From Promethearchaeota archaeon (GTDB lineage Archaea; Asgardarchaeota; Lokiarchaeia; Sigyniarchaeales; SOKP01), in the NCBI GenBank assembly GCA_019057865.1, contig JAHLWP010000012.1:28544-92543 (forward strand): a stretch of 64,000 bases of DNA. The letters are read 5' to 3'. The stretch's first letter is position 1. Each line of letters begins with the position of its first letter. A program made the translations under genes and the position numbers. Positions 2,975 through 19,127 of this stretch are shown here, piece by piece. The notes beneath the pieces are model-generated. The model was not told the DNA's origin. It saw nothing but the letters and a program-made list of their open reading frames with translations, and did not search any database.

Positions 2975-3844
2975 TTAATTTCTATTATGTAGATGTTTTT
3001 TCTCTTTTTCAATCTTAATTAGTAATTTTCCAGCTGTTTTATGGCTCATTAATTGTAAATATGATAATAACCACCACCATCGTGGCACAAATACTTCTCT
3101 TTTATATTTGCGTGATGCTTTCATAACACGTTCAGCAACATCCCTAGCTTCAACATATTGATATATGAACCCTCTTTTTTGATATTTTCTTGCCCATTCC
3201 TTCATTTTTGGTGTAGAATCCCAAAATTTAGTTTTAGCAGGAGCGGAACAGATGGTTATTACTTGAATATTATGATTTTGCATTCGATATTCTAATCGAA
3301 CTGAATCTGCTAAACCTACTACAGCATGTTTACTCATGCTATATGCTGCTAAATTGGGAATACCCGTTTTTCCTGCTGAGCTTGCTGAGAAAATCAATTG
3401 ACCTTCACGTCTTTCAGGATATTTTTTTGTTGGTGCTGGTCGTCCAATATAAGGAAGTGCTTCTTGAAGAACCAACCACATTCCATCAGTATTGATAGAC
3501 ATTATCTTGCGATACTCTTCAAAAGAGCCTTGATTTGTAATTGAACAGGTACTTCCTATTCCTGCATTATTAAATAAAATATCGATATATTTTTCCTTAT
3601 CTCCAATCTTTTTAATTCCAGATTCTATTTGTTCTTTATTAGTAACATCAAATACCATCTTTTCGACGTATTCAGCACCTAAATTTTTAATTTCTTCTGT
3701 TAATGCATCTAATGTAGGACCAGGAAGATCTAATAAATACATTTTCATCCCTAAGGGTGCAAAAAGCCTACATACTTCACTGCCAATATCACCACTAGCC
3801 CCTGTTATTACGAATACTTTTCCTTTATACCATTTCTTTTTCAT
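2975..3844 (-). CDS. Short-chain dehydrogenase/reductase
   Basis: TGASGDIG, NNAG, YSMSK catalytic motif. Confidence 0.9.
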   Translation of the reverse strand: MKKKWYKGKVFVITGASGDIGSEVCRLFAPLGMKMYLLDLPGPTLDALTEEIKNLGAEYVEKMVFDVTNKEQIESGIKKIGDKEKYIDILFNNAGIGSTCSITNQGSFEEYRKIMSINTDGMWLVLQEALPYIGRPAPTKKYPERREGQLIFSASSAGKTGIPNLAAYSMSKHAVVGLADSVRLEYRMQNHNIQVITICSAPAKTKFWDSTPKMKEWARKYQKRGFIYQYVEARDVAERVMKASRKYKREVFVPRWWWLLSYLQLMSHKTAGKLLIKIEKEKKHLHNRN

Positions 3845-5325: not shown

Positions 5326-5859
5326 TTGGTTAAAATGTCTGACTTAATATACGTTTTCAAGCTCATAGTTATTGGTCCTGGTGCTGTAGGAAAAACAAGT
5401 ATTATAAATAGATTTGTAAAGGATGAATTTGTTTTAAAATATAAATTAACTATTGGAACAGATTTTATATCAAAAACCATTGAATACAAACCGAATAAAA
5501 AAGCAAAACTGCAAATTTGGGATATTGGGGGTCAAGAAAGATTTAAATTCTTGCGTAGAAGTTTTTATGATGGTGCTAACGGAGCATTTTTGGTTTTTGA
5601 TCTTTCAAGAGGACATACATATAAAGAAACAAAGACATGGCTTTCTGAAATGAATCAAATTATGGAAAAGAAAATACCTTTCATATTAGTAGGAAATAAA
5701 TCTGATTTAATTGAGGAAATTGGTGAATTAATCGATCGAAATGAAGTAGAAATGTTTGTTAAAGAAGAAAAAAGTATTTACATAGAAACTTCAGCAAAGA
5801 CAGGAGATAATGTTGAACAGGCTTTCATTGAATTAACTCAAAGAATGATTAAAAAATAA
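5326..5859 (+). CDS. Rab-like small GTPase (eukaryotic signature protein)
   Basis: G1 GPGAVGKTS, G2 TIGTDF, G3 WDIGGQERF, G4 NKSD, G5 ETSAK; no C-terminal prenylation Cys. Confidence 0.93.
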   Translation: MVKMSDLIYVFKLIVIGPGAVGKTSIINRFVKDEFVLKYKLTIGTDFISKTIEYKPNKKAKLQIWDIGGQERFKFLRRSFYDGANGAFLVFDLSRGHTYKETKTWLSEMNQIMEKKIPFILVGNKSDLIEEIGELIDRNEVEMFVKEEKSIYIETSAKTGDNVEQAFIELTQRMIKK

Positions 5860-5925
5860 TACTTATCTATCTGTGATAAAGGTAATTAAAAAGATTTAAA
5901 AACGAAATTTACTGAATTTTTTAGG

Positions 5926-7302
5926 GTGAAAAAAATGGAACTTATAGAGATCTTAAACCAAATCCCTGAATATAAAGAATTCATGACAATTGCTGAATTA
6001 GACGATTCTAGTAAAAAGTTAGCGAAATTATTTGACTATGTAGACTTGAAAGAAATTGGTAAATCAAGAGAAGGAAGAACAATAAATTGCCTAAAAATTG
6101 GAGAGGGAAAAGAAAATGTGCTTCTCTTTGCATTCCCACATCCCAATGAACCTATTGGAAGCATGAGCTTGGAGTTCTTATCATGGTTTTTAGCAGAAAA
6201 TCCTGAATTTACGAAAGAAACCGGTTATACATGGTATTTAATTAAAGCAATTGATATAGATGGAGCTTTACTGAATGAAGGATGGTTTAAAGGGGAATTT
6301 GATCCTTTTAAATATGCTAAGAATTATTACAGACCCGCAAGTAATGAACAAATTGAGTGGACTTTTCCCGTCAAGTACAAAAAGCTTGAATTTGAAACTC
6401 CACCACCCGAAACTCAAGCTTTAATTTTTTTAATGAAGAAATTAAGACCTAAGTTTGTATATAGTCTTCATAATTCGGGTTTTGGTGGTGTTTATTTTTA
6501 TGTTACTCGTGGAGTTGGAAACCTATTTACTGATCTCATTGAATTTGTTAAAAAAGAAAAATTACCATTACATCTTGGAGAACCTGAAGCACCATATATT
6601 AAATCTCTATATGATGCAGTTTTCGAAATCTTTGGTATTCAAGAGATGTATGATTTTGCTGAAGCTAATGGTGTAGAGAATCCTCAAGAGATTTTACGGT
6701 GTGGGACATCCTCATTTGATTATCTTAAAAGAATCACGGGTCATAAAAGCATGACATTAGTTTGTGAAATGCCATATTTTTACGATGAAGCTATCGATGA
6801 TTTATCCCACACAGAATTTGAAAGAAGAGACCTTGTTATAAAATCAATAGATTACATGAAAGATGTATATAATCATTCTAAGAAAGTCTTTCGATCAATT
6901 AAGAAATATTGTAAAAAGACTACAAGACTTTATAGTGCAGTGGATTATCTAATTAAGACTGGTGGAATGATGCTTGAAGTATATATGCAAGATGCCAAAA
7001 CATCGCCCATGTATGATGGAAAAGCAACAGTATCACAAGCATTTGATTCAAATATCTCAAGTAGATATTACAGCTTGCTTTCTATATCAATGCTAGCAAG
7101 ATTATGTCAAGAAGCCTCTTTGAATCATCCCGAAAAGAAAGCAGAGCTTTTGAAAATCAAAACTGACTTAGAAAAATGGATTGAAAAAAGAATATACGAG
7201 TTATTAAGCCATACAAAATTTGAAGTTATTCCAATCCAAAAACTAGTCCGAGTTCAAATTGGAAGTGCTTTTATCACTCTAAAAAACTTATTAAAAAAAT
7301 AA
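5926..7302 (+). CDS. M14 family zinc carboxypeptidase
   Basis: HPNE zinc motif, SLHN, IGKSREGR. Confidence 0.8.
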   Translation: MKKMELIEILNQIPEYKEFMTIAELDDSSKKLAKLFDYVDLKEIGKSREGRTINCLKIGEGKENVLLFAFPHPNEPIGSMSLEFLSWFLAENPEFTKETGYTWYLIKAIDIDGALLNEGWFKGEFDPFKYAKNYYRPASNEQIEWTFPVKYKKLEFETPPPETQALIFLMKKLRPKFVYSLHNSGFGGVYFYVTRGVGNLFTDLIEFVKKEKLPLHLGEPEAPYIKSLYDAVFEIFGIQEMYDFAEANGVENPQEILRCGTSSFDYLKRITGHKSMTLVCEMPYFYDEAIDDLSHTEFERRDLVIKSIDYMKDVYNHSKKVFRSIKKYCKKTTRLYSAVDYLIKTGGMMLEVYMQDAKTSPMYDGKATVSQAFDSNISSRYYSLLSISMLARLCQEASLNHPEKKAELLKIKTDLEKWIEKRIYELLSHTKFEVIPIQKLVRVQIGSAFITLKNLLKK

Positions 7303-12549: not shown

Positions 12550-14496
12550 GTGAAAAACATGAGTAAAGCTAAAGGAAAACCTTTACCAGATGATGTTAAA
12601 GGATATTCACAAGTTAGACTCGATGTCGATCTAACAACTGGGAAAATTGAAAAAACTGAATTATCAGGAGAATTCTGTCGCGATTGGATTGGTGGATATG
12701 GCTTCGGTGCTCGCATTTTGTGGGAAGAGCTGAAACCTGGCATAGATCCACTCGGTCCGGAGAATGTTTTTGTTTATGCTCAGGGACCATTCCCAACCAC
12801 CATTCTGCCAACTAGCTCAAAGTATGGCGTTTTTGCCAAATCACCTTTAACGGGAATGTTTGGAATGGCAATATCTTCGGGAAGTGTAGGAGCTCAAGCT
12901 CGTCGTGCTGGAATTAATGTAATTGTCTTTAAAGGAAAAGCTCCTGAACTCTCTTACTTTGTTATTGACGATGATGATGATTATTTAGTTCCATGCGAAA
13001 AAACTTTAAAGGGAAAAGGAACCTTTGAAACTGAAGATCTTTTAAGAGAGGAATTTCAGGACCAACGATTAGCAGTAATGAGTATAGGACCTGCTGGTGA
13101 ACGTATGAGTAGAATGGGATGTATTACTAATGATCGAAACAGACAAGCGGGAAGAACAGGAATGGGCGCTGTTATGGGATCCAAAAACCTTAAAGCAGTT
13201 TGTTTTAGGGGCACTAAAGGTATAAAAGTTGCACATCCAGTTGAATTTTATAAAATAGCCAAGAAACTCATAAAGGTAGCTAATGGACCTGCGACTGCTA
13301 AATATCGAGATCTTGGAACACCTGCAGGACTTACAAGCTATAACAAACTTGGGATGATGCCTACTTTTAACCATCGCGAAGGTACCTGGGATAAGATTAC
13401 TAATGGTTCCTTCACTGGTGATACACTTAATGAGGATTGGGTTGTAAAGAAAGTTGCTTGCTCACAATGCTCCATTGCTTGCGATCATCTAGCAAGAGTC
13501 CCCAAAAATCATCCTGACTGGCCAAATCTTATCGCAAGTGTTGATATTGAACTTTTGTATGGATTTGGAACTGGATGTGGTAATGCTGATTGGCCAACTG
13601 TCTTCAAGTGTATTAGTTTGTGTGATGATTTAGGAATTGATGCTATTAGTGGAGGAGTAACTGCTGCTATGGCTTGCGATCTTTATACAGACGGCTTAAT
13701 AACTAAAGAGGATTTAGGATTCGAACTTCCATTTGGTTCAACAACGAATTTAGTAAAATTTACAGAAGAAATGATCCTTGGAAAAGGATTTGCAGGAGAA
13801 ATTTTTGGTCATGGAACCAGAGTTGCCGGTGAAAAATTAGAAGAGAAGGGAAAGAAGGGAGCTAGTACGTATGCAATGCAAATTAAAGGGTTAGAGATGC
13901 CTGCATTTGATATCCACGGAATGTCGTCCTTCGCCGTTGGGGAGAGCGTATCCATTAGAGGCGCTTGTCATTTGCGTAATGGATCTTATGGACTCGATGC
14001 TAAAGGCACTTTTGATCGTTTCAGTTATGATAAACCTCTAGAACGTGGAAAAGCAATTAAGGCAGTTGAGGATGTATATGGCATCATCGATTCTTTCATC
14101 ATTTGTAAATTTACACGCGGAATTTATGAGAATGATGCCGAAATGGCAAAAGTTTACGAGTTAGTAACTGGTCTTCCAATGGATGAAGAATTAATGCTTG
14201 AAAGGGGAGATGCAATTGTTACTCTTTCAAAGTGTTTTAACATCAGAGAAGGTTGGACCAGAGCAGATGATCATCCCCCAGAAAGATTCTTTAAAATGGC
14301 TCACACAAAGGGTCCTGCTAAAGGAGTGACCCTAAAAGAAGATGGATTTCAACAATTGTTATCGGGTTATTATGAAGCAAGAGGTTGGGATAAAGAAACA
14401 GGTATTCCTACTGATGAAACCTTGAAAAAATTAGGAATGGAGTTCGTTATTGGTAATTTAAAACCAGCACAAACAAAAAAAGGAGGTAAAAAATAA
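12550..14496 (+). CDS. aor: Tungsten-type aldehyde:ferredoxin oxidoreductase family protein (start possibly ATG 12559)
   Basis: KSPLTG, SIGPAGE, AGRTGMGAVMGSKNLKA, CSQCSIAC, DDLGID, RGACH, YYEARGWD. Confidence 0.92.
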   Translation: MKNMSKAKGKPLPDDVKGYSQVRLDVDLTTGKIEKTELSGEFCRDWIGGYGFGARILWEELKPGIDPLGPENVFVYAQGPFPTTILPTSSKYGVFAKSPLTGMFGMAISSGSVGAQARRAGINVIVFKGKAPELSYFVIDDDDDYLVPCEKTLKGKGTFETEDLLREEFQDQRLAVMSIGPAGERMSRMGCITNDRNRQAGRTGMGAVMGSKNLKAVCFRGTKGIKVAHPVEFYKIAKKLIKVANGPATAKYRDLGTPAGLTSYNKLGMMPTFNHREGTWDKITNGSFTGDTLNEDWVVKKVACSQCSIACDHLARVPKNHPDWPNLIASVDIELLYGFGTGCGNADWPTVFKCISLCDDLGIDAISGGVTAAMACDLYTDGLITKEDLGFELPFGSTTNLVKFTEEMILGKGFAGEIFGHGTRVAGEKLEEKGKKGASTYAMQIKGLEMPAFDIHGMSSFAVGESVSIRGACHLRNGSYGLDAKGTFDRFSYDKPLERGKAIKAVEDVYGIIDSFIICKFTRGIYENDAEMAKVYELVTGLPMDEELMLERGDAIVTLSKCFNIREGWTRADDHPPERFFKMAHTKGPAKGVTLKEDGFQQLLSGYYEARGWDKETGIPTDETLKKLGMEFVIGNLKPAQTKKGGKK

Positions 14497-15115
14497 TGTC
14501 AAAAGCTGCAACTAAAAAAAGAGGAGGAAAGATGCATCAATTCATCATCGTGGATCCAAATTTATGTACGGGATGCGAAACTTGGACCAGGTCTCCTGGA
14601 AAGCACAAAACCTGTGAATCCGTATGTAGTTTTGTACATGATGGTGAATTCAATCCAATAAATACAAGAATTCATAGAGTTCGAATTGAACCTGTTTTTA
14701 ATATCGCTTTAGCGTGTCAGAAGTGTGAAGACTCACCCTGCGTGAGAGCGTGTCCTGAGAAAGCGCTAAGTCAAGACCCAGAAACGGGTTCAATTATGGT
14801 AGATGACGATAAATGTAATGGCTGCGCCTTCTGTATGAATTAAGAGAATTTCTCTCTAATATGCGGAAAAGGGCGTGCGATTTCGGAGTTCTGAGTCTAC
14901 ATATTGAATCTCAGAAAGCACTTATCTGTGATCTTTGTGAAAATATGAAGGAAGATTATATTGATGAAGAATCCGGAATTAAGGAACCCCAATGCATATT
15001 GGTTTGTCCTAAAGAGGCGATTTCTCTTAAAAATGTGGAACAGATTGGAGAAGAAACCCGTATTGAAGCCGTTAAAAGACTTTTTTCATCAATACTAGAA
15101 GAGTATGAAGGTTAA
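14496..15115 (+). CDS. Four-cluster 4Fe-4S electron-transfer subunit (DmsB/HycB/CooF-like), AOR partner; predicted join 14496-14579 + 14610-14836 + 14869-15115, 185 aa
   Basis: ORF track splits it into 14496..14843 and 14861..15115. Removing 30 + 32 nt gives a 558-nt open frame with CTGCETCESVC, CQKCEDSPCVRACP, CNGCAFCIRAC and CDLC...CILVCP. TAATG overlap with aor stop. Confidence 0.85.
14580..14609 (+). other. Putative 30-nt BHB-type mRNA intron 1 (in frame)
   Basis: Interrupts CxxCxxC. Central helix UGCG(14574-77)/CACA(14604-07) with one C.A mismatch, AAA bulges at 14578-80 and 14608-10, inner stems CUU/AAG and CCAGG/CCUGG. Confidence 0.65.
14837..14868 (+). other. Putative 32-nt BHB-type mRNA intron 2 (contains TAA, shifts frame)
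   Basis: Outer stem GCGCCUU(14824-30)/AGGGCGU(14870-76), central 4 bp CUGU(14831-34)/GCGG(14863-66), 3-nt bulges AUG(14835-37) and AAA(14867-69), inner hairpin; excision gives C-I-R-A-C. Confidence 0.72.
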
Positions 15116-15361
15116 ATAATATTTTTATATATTTATTTCTTTTTTTTATTCTATCTTTTATTTTTTTAATAAGTATTATCATTAAAGTTTTAAATTTTAT
15201 GATTTATTTGTAGGATAGATAATTGAAATTACATAATAATTGGATTTTAATAATATAGACTATTTACAATATCATAAATATTTTTTTGATTAGCAATTCT
15301 TGATATAGGTAAGTAGAAAAGAAGAAACTTATGGAGGAAAGAATTAAACAAGGTGTATAAC

Positions 15362-17338
15362 TTGTCTGAAAAACAGACCAAGGATAATAATGAACCAGAA
15401 TTGCCAATTGTTGGCGTTTTCGTGTGTCGCTGAGGAATAAACATCGCTGGTATCTTAGATGTCCCTAGAATCGTGGAAGAACTTAATAGATTAGAAGGTG
15501 TAAAAGCTTTTGAATATCTTAGTATGTGTACTGAAGGAGGATCTTCTTATATAAAGGAACAACTTGAAGAAAGTAAAATTGAGAGAATTGTTGTAGCTGC
15601 TTGTACTCCTAGAACTCATCAACCAGTTTTTCACGCTATACTCGCTGAAGCTGGTTTACCTCCTAGATATTTGGAATTTGTTAATATAAGAGAACATTGT
15701 AGCTTCGTTCATCAAGCTCCAGAAGTACGTGAAAAAGCAATTCAGAAGGCAATTGAACTCACAAAAGCAGGAATAGCACGTGCTAGATTATTAGAAGATG
15801 TTCCAATAAAAGTAGTACCTGTTGAACCAGTGGCTCTAGTTGTAGGAGGAGGTATTGCTGGATTATCTGCTGCTGTTGATTTAGGGGATGCTGGATTTAA
15901 AGTTTACCTCGTTGAAAAGAATACTACAATTGGAGGTAGGATGAGCCAATTAGACCGAACATTCCCAACGGACGATTGTTCAATATGAATTCTCGGTCCT
16001 AAAATGTTAGAAGCAAATCGTCATCCAAACATTGAGATTCTATCATATAGTGAAGTCATTGAAGTTGATGGATATATTGGAAATTTCAAGGTTAAAGTTA
16101 AAAGAAAGTCACGGTTCGTAGATGAAATTAAATGTACTGGTTGTGGAGCATGTCCAGAAGTATGCCCTATTTATGTACCTAATTATTTTGATGAAAATCT
16201 TTCGGCGAGAAAATGCATTGATATCGCTTTTGCTCAAGCTGTTCCTGCAATTTTTGATATTGCAAGAGAATCTTGTGTAGAATGTTTTGCTTGTGTTGAT
16301 TCATGTGAAGAAGATGCTATTGATTTTAGTATTCAAGATAAAGAAATTGAACTTAAAGTTGGTACTATAATTGTTGCTACAGGGTGGGATCTCTATCAAG
16401 GACCAGATTATGGATATGGTACTTTCGATAATGTTGTAAATCAAATCGAGTTGGAGAGGATTCTTGCGCCTAATGGTCCTACTTATGGACATTTAAAACG
16501 ACCTTCTGATGGAAAACGTCCTACTAAAGTATTATTCATCAATTGTGTTGGATCGAGAGACATAAATAAAAATGCTCACTGCAGCGTTATTTGCTGTAAT
16601 TTATCTCTTAAAAACTCAAAACTCATCAAATTAGAATATCCTGATTCTCAAATAGTTTGTTGTTATATAGATATGAGATGTGCAGGAAAAGATTATGAAG
16701 AGTACTATAGACGTTCACGAGAAGCAGGAATTATCTTTCTAAAAGGATTAGTTGGTAAAATTGAAGAAGATCCATTAACTAAAAATCTAAAAGTACAGTT
16801 TGAACCTGTTGGCACAGATACAATTGTCGAGATGGAGTTTCATATGGTTGTATTATCACCAGCATCACTCCCATCTAAAGGTACTGTGGAGATAGCGAGA
16901 GTTTTAAATATGGAAAAAAGCCCAGATGGATTCCTAAAAGAATTTCATGCTCGACTTGATCCAATCAGTACAAAGGTTCCTGGAATATATATATGCGGTT
17001 CAGCTCAAGGACAAAAAGAGATTGATAAAGCAGTCAGCCAAGCAAAGGGTGCTGCTTCTACAGCAGGTATACCAATGGGCAAAAAAGAATACGTCATGGA
17101 GTTAATTCGGGCTACACCTTTAGATGAACGTTGTGCCAAATGTTACAAATGTATAGAGTCATGTCCATATAGTGCGATTTCAGTAAATGAGAAAGGAATT
17201 CTAGTAGTGAATATTATTCTATGCAGAGGATGTGGTACTTGTGAAGCCGTTTGTCCTTCTAAAGCAATTGAATTAACATACTTTAGAGATGATCAATATA
17301 TGGCATTAATTGATGAATTACTTCCTATTGCGGATTAA
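15362..17338 (+). CDS. hdrA: Heterodisulfide reductase subunit A-like flavoprotein, selenoprotein with 2 Sec (U24, U209), 658 aa
   Basis: TTG start after AGGTG SD. In-frame TGA at 15431-33 (GVFVCR-U-GINIAG) and 15986-88 (FPTDDCSI-U-ILGPKM), both at conserved Cys positions. GGGIAG FAD motif and ferredoxin motifs. Confidence 0.92.
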
Positions 17339-17351
17339 AGAGGTGGATAAT

Positions 17352-17807
17352 ATGGCAGAAAAAGAAGATATTAAAATTATAGCATTTTTATGTTGGAAAT
17401 GAGGATATGGATCAGCAGATATGGCAGGAACTATTCGAGCTCAATATCCATCATCTATTAGAACAGTTTTAGTTCCTTGTACGGGAAGAATTGGATCAGA
17501 TTTAGTGATGCGTGCGTTTGGAAGAGGTGCCGATGGCGTAATGATTATTGGATGATACCTTAAAGAATGTGATTATGAGACGGGAAACTATTTTGCATAT
17601 CGTCTAGTTGAATACTTAAAAGAAGTTTTAAAAGCTATAGGGATTAATGAAAAGCGGTTATATAACGGATATTGTACTGCGGCTGAAGGTCAAAAATTTC
17701 AAATCGAAGCAACAGATTTCGACAAAATAATACGTGATCTAGGTCCAAGTCCTTTACGTACTAAAGGCGGCGCACCAGAAAAAGCTAAAGCGAAAGCGAA
17801 AACTTAA
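17352..17807 (+). CDS. mvhD: Hydrogenase delta subunit MvhD/VhuD ([2Fe-2S]), selenoprotein with 2 Sec (U17, U68), 151 aa; missed by ORF track
   Basis: Manual translation MAEKEDIKIIAFLCWK-U-GYGSADMAG...VPCTGRI...GADGVMIIG-U-YLKECDYETGN...CTAAEG...LGPSPL; TGA at 17400-02 and 17553-55; GAGGTG SD. Confidence 0.92.
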
Positions 17808-17813
17808 AAATTA

Positions 17814-17885
17814 ATGTGTTAACTAATGATACTGAGTTAAAAAAATGAGAACTCAGTTGAAGAAATGGGTGCACCATTAACACAT
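17814..17885 (+). promoter_or_regulatory. Eukaryote-like SECIS element in the 3' UTR of hdrA-mvhD
   Basis: Lower stem AUGUGUUAA(17814-22)/UUAACACAU(17877-85); AUGA at 17826-29; upper stem ACUGAGUU(17831-38)/AACUCAGU(17850-57); A-rich apical loop; UGAA at 17858-61 completing the tandem GA core. Confidence 0.85.
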
Positions 17886-17972
17886 AAAATTGTAAATATA
17901 AAATTAAAAGAAAAAAATATATATTGGAAAAATTTAAAAGAATTTTTTTAAGAAAAATTCAGTTTAATAATT

Positions 17973-19127
17973 TTGAGTTGGAAATACATGGATGCAATGG
18001 CAGAATATCTAATAAAAATTGAAAATTTTCCCAAGATTTTAGAAACATTGTTAAAAGAAAAAGTAGTAGATAAGATAATTGGAGCCCAAACTAGAATAGA
18101 TAAAAAAACTGAAAAAGAAGATAGATTTACTGTACAACCCAAACTATATGAAAAACCTGAAGATATTAAAGGTTTCCCATTAACAAATCTAATTACTTAT
18201 GGATATGCCAGAACTGACTCTGCTTCAAAATATTTACATAAATCAGTAGAAGGAGCAATGAAAGAAAAAGTAGCGCTCATTGCTCGACCTTGCGATACAA
18301 GAGCTTTAATCGAATTAGCTAAGATAAAGCAAGTTAATTTAGAAAATCTATTTATCATTGCTTTTGAAGATAGAGGAATGGTGATTAATGTATCACGACA
18401 AATGAGAAATTATAAAGACATCGATCCCACAAAAGTAGTGAAAGAAAAAATTGGAGATAAAGGATTAATCCTTCAAATTGATGATGGAAAAACCAAAGAA
18501 ATTGATTTAAATATCGCAGAAAATTGTACAAGGTGTACAAGAAAAATTCCTGTGGTAGCAGATTTAGGAATTAGTGATTTAGGAATTCCAATAGATTCAG
18601 ATGAAATTATTTTAAAAGTGTATTCTGATAAAGGAAATGAAATATTAGAAAAGTCAAAAATAGATAAAAAACCCATTCCGGATGACGTTAAAAAGGCCCA
18701 TACAGATAAGATAAAGGAAATTAAAGAGAATGCAATAACTAAAAGAGCAAAAGATTTAGAAGAATGGGATAAACTCTCTCAAACCGAAAAAATTGCCAAG
18801 CTTCAAGCATGTACAATGTGTGGAAATTGTATTAGAGGCTGTCCCGTGTGTTATTGCGTTGATTGTATACTTCAAAAGAAGCGAAAAGAAAAAATAATTA
18901 ATAAAGAGACATATCAATTAACTCGTATAGCTCATGTCGCAGACCGCTGTGTTGAATGTGGAAATTGTGATAATAATTGTCCTGTCCATTTACCATTATC
19001 TTTATACTTCCAATCGCTAAGTGAGGTGTTTAAAGAGAAATTTGGCTACGACGCAGGCATGTCTCTTGAAGATATTCCATTTAGATCAGGAAAAGCTATC
19101 TTACAAATGGAATTGGAGAAGACCTAA
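17973..19127 (+). CDS. FdhB/FrhB-like (F420 hydrogenase/dehydrogenase beta family) Fe-S protein; true start probably ATG 17988 or 17997
   Basis: ALIARPCDTRALIEL, CTRC, CTMCGNCIRGCPVCYC, RCVECGNCDNNCP. Confidence 0.8.
   Translation: MSWKYMDAMAEYLIKIENFPKILETLLKEKVVDKIIGAQTRIDKKTEKEDRFTVQPKLYEKPEDIKGFPLTNLITYGYARTDSASKYLHKSVEGAMKEKVALIARPCDTRALIELAKIKQVNLENLFIIAFEDRGMVINVSRQMRNYKDIDPTKVVKEKIGDKGLILQIDDGKTKEIDLNIAENCTRCTRKIPVVADLGISDLGIPIDSDEIILKVYSDKGNEILEKSKIDKKPIPDDVKKAHTDKIKEIKENAITKRAKDLEEWDKLSQTEKIAKLQACTMCGNCIRGCPVCYCVDCILQKKRKEKIINKETYQLTRIAHVADRCVECGNCDNNCPVHLPLSLYFQSLSEVFKEKFGYDAGMSLEDIPFRSGKAILQMELEKT

Follow-up and report, generated by a model that had tools for sequence, protein, structure and literature searches.

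Can a metabolic gene of an Asgard archaeon yield a full-length protein when its reading frame is broken by an insert of 32 nucleotides (nt)? This question is raised by a stretch of 64,000 nt, hereafter the window, from a Promethearchaeota archaeon of the Lokiarchaeia (assembly GCA_019057865.1, contig JAHLWP010000012.1, positions 28,544 to 92,543), in which the gene for the four-cluster iron-sulfur (Fe-S) partner of an aldehyde:ferredoxin oxidoreductase (AFOR) carries such an insert at positions 14837-14868 of the window, within its third CxxCxxCxxxC motif. Based on comparison with orthologues and structural analysis of the predicted transcript, we propose that the insert, here termed intron 2, is very probably a bulge-helix-bulge (BHB) mRNA intron spliced by the endonuclease EndA and the ligase RtcB. 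The insert, its boundaries as given by comparison, its conserved structure, the enzyme genes of the host and the selection acting on the downstream exon in relatives constitute the observed basis of this proposal.

The orthologues establish what has to be removed. The intron 2 site is uninterrupted in 115 of the 125 orthologous sequences that cover it, a set that includes redundant metagenome contigs and whose rows are not independent; counted by genome, the site is split in 4 of the 106 genomes of the family that have the gene. At the junction the uninterrupted sequences read CIRAC (89), CVRAC (16), CARAC (5) or, in the remainder, rarer forms. Removal of 14837-14868 yields C-I-R-A-C, the commonest of these, in agreement with the product predicted in a first-pass annotation made from the letters alone, and the same count answers its question of whether intron-less orthologues have isoleucine at this position. 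Removals of 29 or 35 nt would likewise restore the frame, but the cysteine spacing is then wrong, and the alignment fixes the length at 32 nt. Left in place, the insert leads to a stop at read-through residue 115, two codons past the junction, with loss of Cys107 and the entire fourth cysteine group, i.e. 5 of 16 cysteines, so that the unspliced message ends early, as had been argued for the necessity of removal.

That the 32 nt are real DNA is shown by contigs of two further studies (runs X3 and X4), which span the insert without a gap, and by an independently obtained metagenome contig of this species (L094), which carries it unchanged. None of the hallmarks of group I, group II or homing rRNA introns was found in this 32-nt sequence, which has no open reading frame (ORF), and Rfam gave no match in the window. 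Nor is there a transposon or insertion-sequence footprint, as neither this insert nor intron 1, a second predicted intron in the same gene, has another copy within 8 mismatches in the genome; a target-site duplication is likewise absent, with the flanks joining straight into the orthologue sequence.

Folded together with its exons, the insert adopts the geometry of an archaeal splicing substrate. The outer exon-exon stem comprises 7 contiguous pairs, with an eighth (U.G) possible, and is followed by the central helix CUGU/GCGG, in which 4 of 4 positions are paired, two of them as G.U. All pairings listed in the first-pass annotation (outer stem, central helix, bulges and inner hairpin), as well as the in-frame TAA at 14841-14843, are present in the sequence, and its claim of a unique register holds, since only 14837-14868 gives a fully paired central helix among 11 registers tried for a 32-nt removal. 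Its description of the element as near-canonical stands for the central and outer helices and needs one refinement on the inner side, where stacking of the helix on the 5' bulge is not clean; instead, a lone A14838-U14862 pair is followed by a bulged A and then by AUUA/UAAU. The element thus belongs to the hBH type and is not a complete hBHBh', being canonical through its outer helix only. With a 4-bp central helix, two opposite 3-nt bulges and at least one flanking helix, it nonetheless falls into the canonical BHB class, for which at least one flanking helix is the definition (bioRxiv 10.64898/2026.10.13.758758). A match of this kind is rarely reached by chance, as only 66 of 200,000 random 32-nt placements in the coding DNA of this genome have a fully paired central helix together with at least 7 outer pairs in any of 9 registers.

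The structure is maintained in diverged relatives. A related 32-nt insert occupies the same register in five diverged orthologues (L014, L105, L118, L145 and L146), in all of which the central helix is fully paired and the inner stem has 5-10 contiguous pairs. Across the six same-register carriers, 92.9% of cells are paired (100% in the central helix) and 5 pairs have changed on both sides, a number reached in 0 of 500 shuffles; slid structures give 35-60%. Four of the 10 inner pairs of intron 2 show changes on both sides among the homologues. The outer helix, which lies in the exons, has 6-7 of its 7 pairs in all six carriers versus 25 of the 115 uninterrupted orthologues, and contains 4 G-C pairs in 5 of the 6 carriers versus none of the 115. 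In three further sequences (L002, L031 and L130), an unrelated insert, likewise of 32 nt, sits one base farther downstream and falls between complete codons, and this second family is again BHB-like, with 3 of 4 central pairs and a long outer helix. The exon downstream of the insert evolves under constraint in these genes: the ratio of non-synonymous to synonymous substitution rates (dN/dS) for exon 3 is 0.06 between L002 and L031 and 0.13 between L031 and L130, and, relative to its uninterrupted sister, exon 3 of L014 has 28 synonymous changes and not a single non-synonymous one. Purifying selection on exon 3 in carriers therefore indicates that the intron-bearing genes are not ordinary pseudogenes.

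Intron 1, of 30 nt, lies in frame. Its register is shared by inserts of 30-34 nt in six diverged homologues, all with fully paired central helices, and the 34-nt member (L036) breaks the frame. L108 and L118, on LAZR contigs of one metagenome, are related alleles in which intron 1 is nearly the same and intron 2 occurs only in L118.

The genome encodes the enzymes that such splicing would require, namely two EndA subunit genes (PF01974) and one RtcB ligase gene (PF01139). The catalytic EndA subunit, of 200 residues, is closest in the PDB to 3p1z (E = 3e-35), by our reading of PMC3241643 the Aeropyrum pernix enzyme, and retains the catalytic histidine region. In the A. pernix enzyme, a loop of the Lys44/Arg46 type confers broad substrate specificity (PMC3241643), and the residues aligning with both Lys44 and Arg46 are kept here, so that a tolerant EndA appears plausible in this host.

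Further inserts in the genome are compatible with such an activity. A motif-free comparison of 477 genes (422 kb) with the close relative G003 identified nine inserts of 28-34 nt, all of them in the present genome. Among inserts of 28-40 nt, 5 of 10 have a canonical BHB, compared to 5.2% of random placements, and with the two of the Fe-S gene left out the figure is 4 of 8 (p = 4e-4). One gene on contig C49 of this genome (G000, ~5688-6154) is longer than its counterpart in G003 by three BHB-like inserts (28, 30 and 34 nt). A strict BHB scan of the whole genome, performed without homology, returned 4,824 matches with a flat length distribution, among them 25 frame-joining candidates that were mostly noise; neither set is used as evidence, and a 37-nt indel near 5343 was dropped as intergenic. 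ARAGORN detected only 30 tRNA genes in the whole genome, 19 of them with an intron call, a low count that would fit tRNA genes so heavily interrupted that the program overlooks part of them.

We propose the following splicing mechanism. Expression, cutting and ligation of the intron 2 transcript are what we infer from the above: exon 2, intron 2 and exon 3 of the pre-mRNA would together form the BHB, and the two-subunit EndA would then cleave after the second base of each bulge, i.e. after 14836 and after 14868, in line with the BHB rule, by which the second bulge base is separated from the third (PMC2738675). RtcB would ligate the exons and, with intron 1 also removed, translation would supply the upstream AFOR with a 185-residue Fe-S subunit. 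The copy of this strain would be a weakened substrate that is probably still cut, because EndA carries the broad-specificity loop.

Several points weigh against this proposal. No spliced junction was seen, the sole RNA run (X20, 5% of words) consisting of short contigs of relatives; none of these contigs crosses the site, and the run is hence neutral on splicing. Intron 2 combines two G.U central pairs with a damaged inner stem and a computed penalty of 4.2 kcal/mol for opening the 5' bulge, and intron 1 of this gene, with UGCG/CACA and one C.A pair, is the sole one of seven with a mismatch in the central helix. The shuffle control for covariation ignores the kinship of the carriers, the comparison with G003 detects frame-breaking inserts less well in G003 than in the present genome, and variable sites between the two strains of this species are too scarce for a test of selection after insertion.

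The weaknesses of this copy could also mean that the introns are true by ancestry and have decayed here, being spliced poorly or not at all while the gene turns into a pseudogene. In strength, each of the two introns ranks at or near the bottom of its family, given the mismatch in intron 1 and, in intron 2, the 3 of 10 broken inner pairs and the zipped 5' bulge. However, all 16 cysteines are intact in two strains, with no further stop or frameshift, and exons 1-2 differ from those of the uninterrupted sister L095 by 4 non-synonymous and 28 synonymous changes. The gene is, moreover, single copy and coupled to an intact AFOR gene, the EndA is of the tolerant type, and the intron 1 homologues L145 and L146 have similar computed penalties of ~4 kcal/mol, so that we regard decay as improbable. 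A related consideration is whether the weakness serves regulation, the first-pass annotation having suggested that splicing could be gated conformationally, with the BHB giving way to a fold in which the 5' bulge is concealed. Such a fold does exist: it retains the central pairs and zips into the 5' bulge, is the minimum free energy (MFE) structure of the region (-19.2 kcal/mol, z = -5.3 versus shuffles) and is favoured over the BHB by 4.2 kcal/mol at 37 C and 6.1 kcal/mol at 4 C, leaving a probability of 0.004 for an open 5' bulge in this copy; the cbf5 intron has, in addition, been proposed as a negative regulator (PMC2738675). Yet the dominance of the bulge-absorbing fold is confined to this species. 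In L014, L105, L145 and L146 the BHB is the MFE structure or lies within 0.1 kcal/mol of it, with a gap of 2.9 kcal/mol in L118; no ligand or sensor element was found, Rfam being without a match in the window, and 92% of the orthologous sequences have no intron here. The competing fold hence looks, in these calculations, like drift in the inner stem of this copy rather than a conserved switch, and the gating idea did not survive the comparison as anything but a very unlikely one.

Expression in the absence of splicing, as two polypeptides through a restart at ATG 14861 or through a -1 ribosomal frameshift within the insert, would take advantage of the exon-3 frame, which is open across the whole insert in this copy and includes an ATG. 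This does not extend to the relatives: a stop in the exon-3 frame lies inside the insert in 6 of 9 distinct carriers, in L014 immediately before R-A-C, and no other carrier species has a usable ATG. By direct reading of the sequence there is no slippery heptamer before the TAA, the products of either route would break the CxxxC spacing kept in uninterrupted orthologues, and the compensatory pairing would be left unexplained; we consider both routes highly improbable. Still less credible, to the point of being negligible, is an assembly error or an element excised at the DNA level. The genome is indeed metagenome-assembled, with an estimated contamination of 5%, but the recovery of the insert in contigs of two other studies speaks against an error. 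Excision from DNA finds no counterpart in a second copy or in boundaries that need target duplication, and the sole DNA contig that skips the insert (run X5) has other letters between the flanks, i.e. it derives from an intron-less relative. Splicing as a BHB mRNA intron thus remains our favoured reading of intron 2.

How the inserts reached their present distribution is a separate matter. On an exon tree with the intron flanks masked, the same-register carriers do not cluster, and every one has uninterrupted sequences as its sisters. The three states require seven changes on this tree, and a topology that forces the seven same-register carriers into one clade is rejected (p-AU 5e-5). The neighbouring AFOR gene gives the same picture as the scattered carriers on the exon tree: that of carrier G056 shares 90% identity with its counterpart in the non-carrier G071 and 73% with that of the present genome. 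Between carriers, 17-24 of the 32 intron bases and 18-24 of the 24 flank bases are identical, as compared to 41-57% identity at third codon positions elsewhere. In L105, which is a single metagenome contig and possibly chimeric, 17 of 60 positions around the site differ from the uninterrupted sister versus 20 of 413 elsewhere, and the excess extends past the helix (9 of 39, p = 3e-4). This foreign-looking flank best matches the wider clade of L105 itself and not another known carrier. Around intron 2 of the present genome, no conversion tract was detected relative to the sister L095 (8 of 60 versus 52 of 438, p = 0.44), and gain here and loss in the sister are therefore indistinguishable. Mainly on the strength of L105, these data suggest, in a reading we offer tentatively and hold somewhat short of probable, that ORF-less BHB introns move laterally among Loki-type lineages into fixed coding sites via short-tract homologous recombination, bringing along the exon bases that complete the motif. 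Alternatively, an old intron may have been lost many times, with selection holding the flanks; this is possible.

The coordinates of the elements discussed are collected in Table 1.

Table 1. Elements of the interrupted Fe-S gene and its upstream neighbour, in window coordinates.
Feature	Position	Strand	Remark
AFOR gene (aldehyde:ferredoxin oxidoreductase)	12550-14496	+	Pfam AFOR_N + AFOR_C
Four-cluster Fe-S gene, whole	14496-15115	+	interrupted gene
Exon 1	14496-14579	+	
Intron 1 (predicted)	14580-14609	+	30 nt, in frame; inside first CxxCxxCxxxC motif
Exon 2	14610-14836	+	Pfam Fer4_11
Outer exon-exon helix, 5' strand	14824-14830	+	pairs with 14870-14876
Central helix, exon strand CUGU	14831-14834	+	pairs with 14863-14866
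5' bulge AU/G	14835-14837	+	predicted cut after 14836, BHB rule (PMC2738675)
Intron 2 (predicted)	14837-14868	+	32 nt; shifts frame, contains in-frame TAA 14841-14843
Inner intron hairpin	14838-14862	+	imperfect in this copy; 3/10 pairs broken in homologues' register
Central helix, intron strand GCGG	14863-14866	+	GCAG in four homologues, ACAG in one
3' bulge AA/A	14867-14869	+	predicted cut after 14868
Exon 3	14869-15115	+	Cys107 + fourth cysteine group (Cys124, 127, 146, 150)
Outer exon-exon helix, 3' strand	14870-14876	+	

The start of the Fe-S gene is overlapped by the stop codon of the AFOR gene, and the gene has no second copy in the genome, the next paralogue being 32% identical. Once both introns are removed, its frame encodes 16 cysteines in four groups. 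The uninterrupted orthologue is similar to the Fe-S subunits of tungsten aldehyde oxidoreductases (PDB 6x1o_B, 6x6u_B and 8c0z_C, E = 1e-21 to 1e-23), which contain Pfam Fer4_11, likewise have four cysteine groups and are encoded beside an AFOR gene; the likeness names the host protein only and says nothing on the introns. With the interleaved ligation usual in this Fe-S family, only a single complete cluster site would be left in the unspliced product.

The AFOR and Fe-S genes share one orientation with hdrA, mvhD and an FrhB/FdhB-like gene (12550-19127), and together these may form an electron-bifurcation module. Otherwise continuous frames contain in-frame TGA codons in hdrA (15431-15433 and 15986-15988) and mvhD (17400-17402 and 17553-17555), which probably encode selenocysteine; for selenocysteine insertion sequence (SECIS) elements Rfam gave nothing in the window, and no other SECIS search was made. 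The tail of the Fe-S gene (15072-15112) is possibly recombined, as its last 11 codons differ from L094, of the same species, and from close relatives at 7 codons (FSSILEEYEG versus FGDILQEYES), compared to only 3 differences from L094 in the first 172 codons. In another genome (G130), the GGYGFG motif of the AFOR gene is interrupted by 30 nt that include an in-frame TAG (L175, ~3094-3123); with 3 of 4 central pairs and a 9-pair inner stem, this insert is a further candidate mRNA intron in the same operon. A scan for sigma-70-type promoters and terminators remained at chance level, the scan model not being suited to archaea.

The closest known system is the cbf5 pre-mRNA intron of Desulfurococcales and Sulfolobales (Watanabe 2002; Yokobori 2009, PMC2738675). 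In the papers that could be searched, cbf5 is the only gene for which splicing within the coding sequence of an archaeon is documented, and as of 2020 its intron was named as the sole BHB mRNA intron reported besides a Haloferax site (PMC7714728). Like intron 2, the cbf5 intron is short (16-44 nt) and ORF-less, has a BHB or relaxed BHB built with exon sequence, is cleaved after the second bulge base, interrupts a codon of a motif that is critical for function and occurs in hosts with a hetero-oligomeric EndA. The cbf5 case comprises one intron in one gene, for which a single gain, vertical inheritance and loss in some lineages have been inferred (PMC2738675), whereas the Fe-S gene has two introns in one metabolic gene of Asgard archaea, in a genome with many such inserts. 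An insert at the intron 2 site is, moreover, found in 8% of orthologous sequences, which are scattered on the tree, and two insert families without relationship to each other lie a single base apart. Splicing has been shown for cbf5, while for the Fe-S gene it is a prediction; judged by its sequence features, intron 2 has everything expected of an EndA substrate and would, by analogy, work like the cbf5 mRNA intron. The BHB site in the 5' untranslated region of Haloferax HVO_1309 is a further example of an mRNA processed by EndA (Schwarz 2020, PMC7714728), but it lies outside the coding sequence, with no reading frame depending on it.

Asgard tRNAs are heavily populated with BHB introns that were gained repeatedly by a route of arrival described as unknown (bioRxiv 10.64898/2026.10.13.758758). 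These non-canonical tRNA introns resemble the inserts described here in lineage, BHB geometry, gains on terminal branches and a two-subunit EndA; the study differs in treating tRNA genes only, the word mRNA being absent from its text. Our literature search, outside which most subscription journals lie, found no paper on Asgard mRNA introns.

In conclusion, the intron 2 site is well suited to studying the arrival of such introns, as it offers carriers beside uninterrupted close sisters and two independent insert families, and the naturally weakened copy of the present genome is useful to gauge how imperfect a substrate EndA accepts. If the proposal is correct, the tRNA machinery of the archaeal relatives of eukaryotes also splices ordinary metabolic mRNAs, some of them with multiple introns, and Asgard genes annotated as split or broken would need to be read anew.
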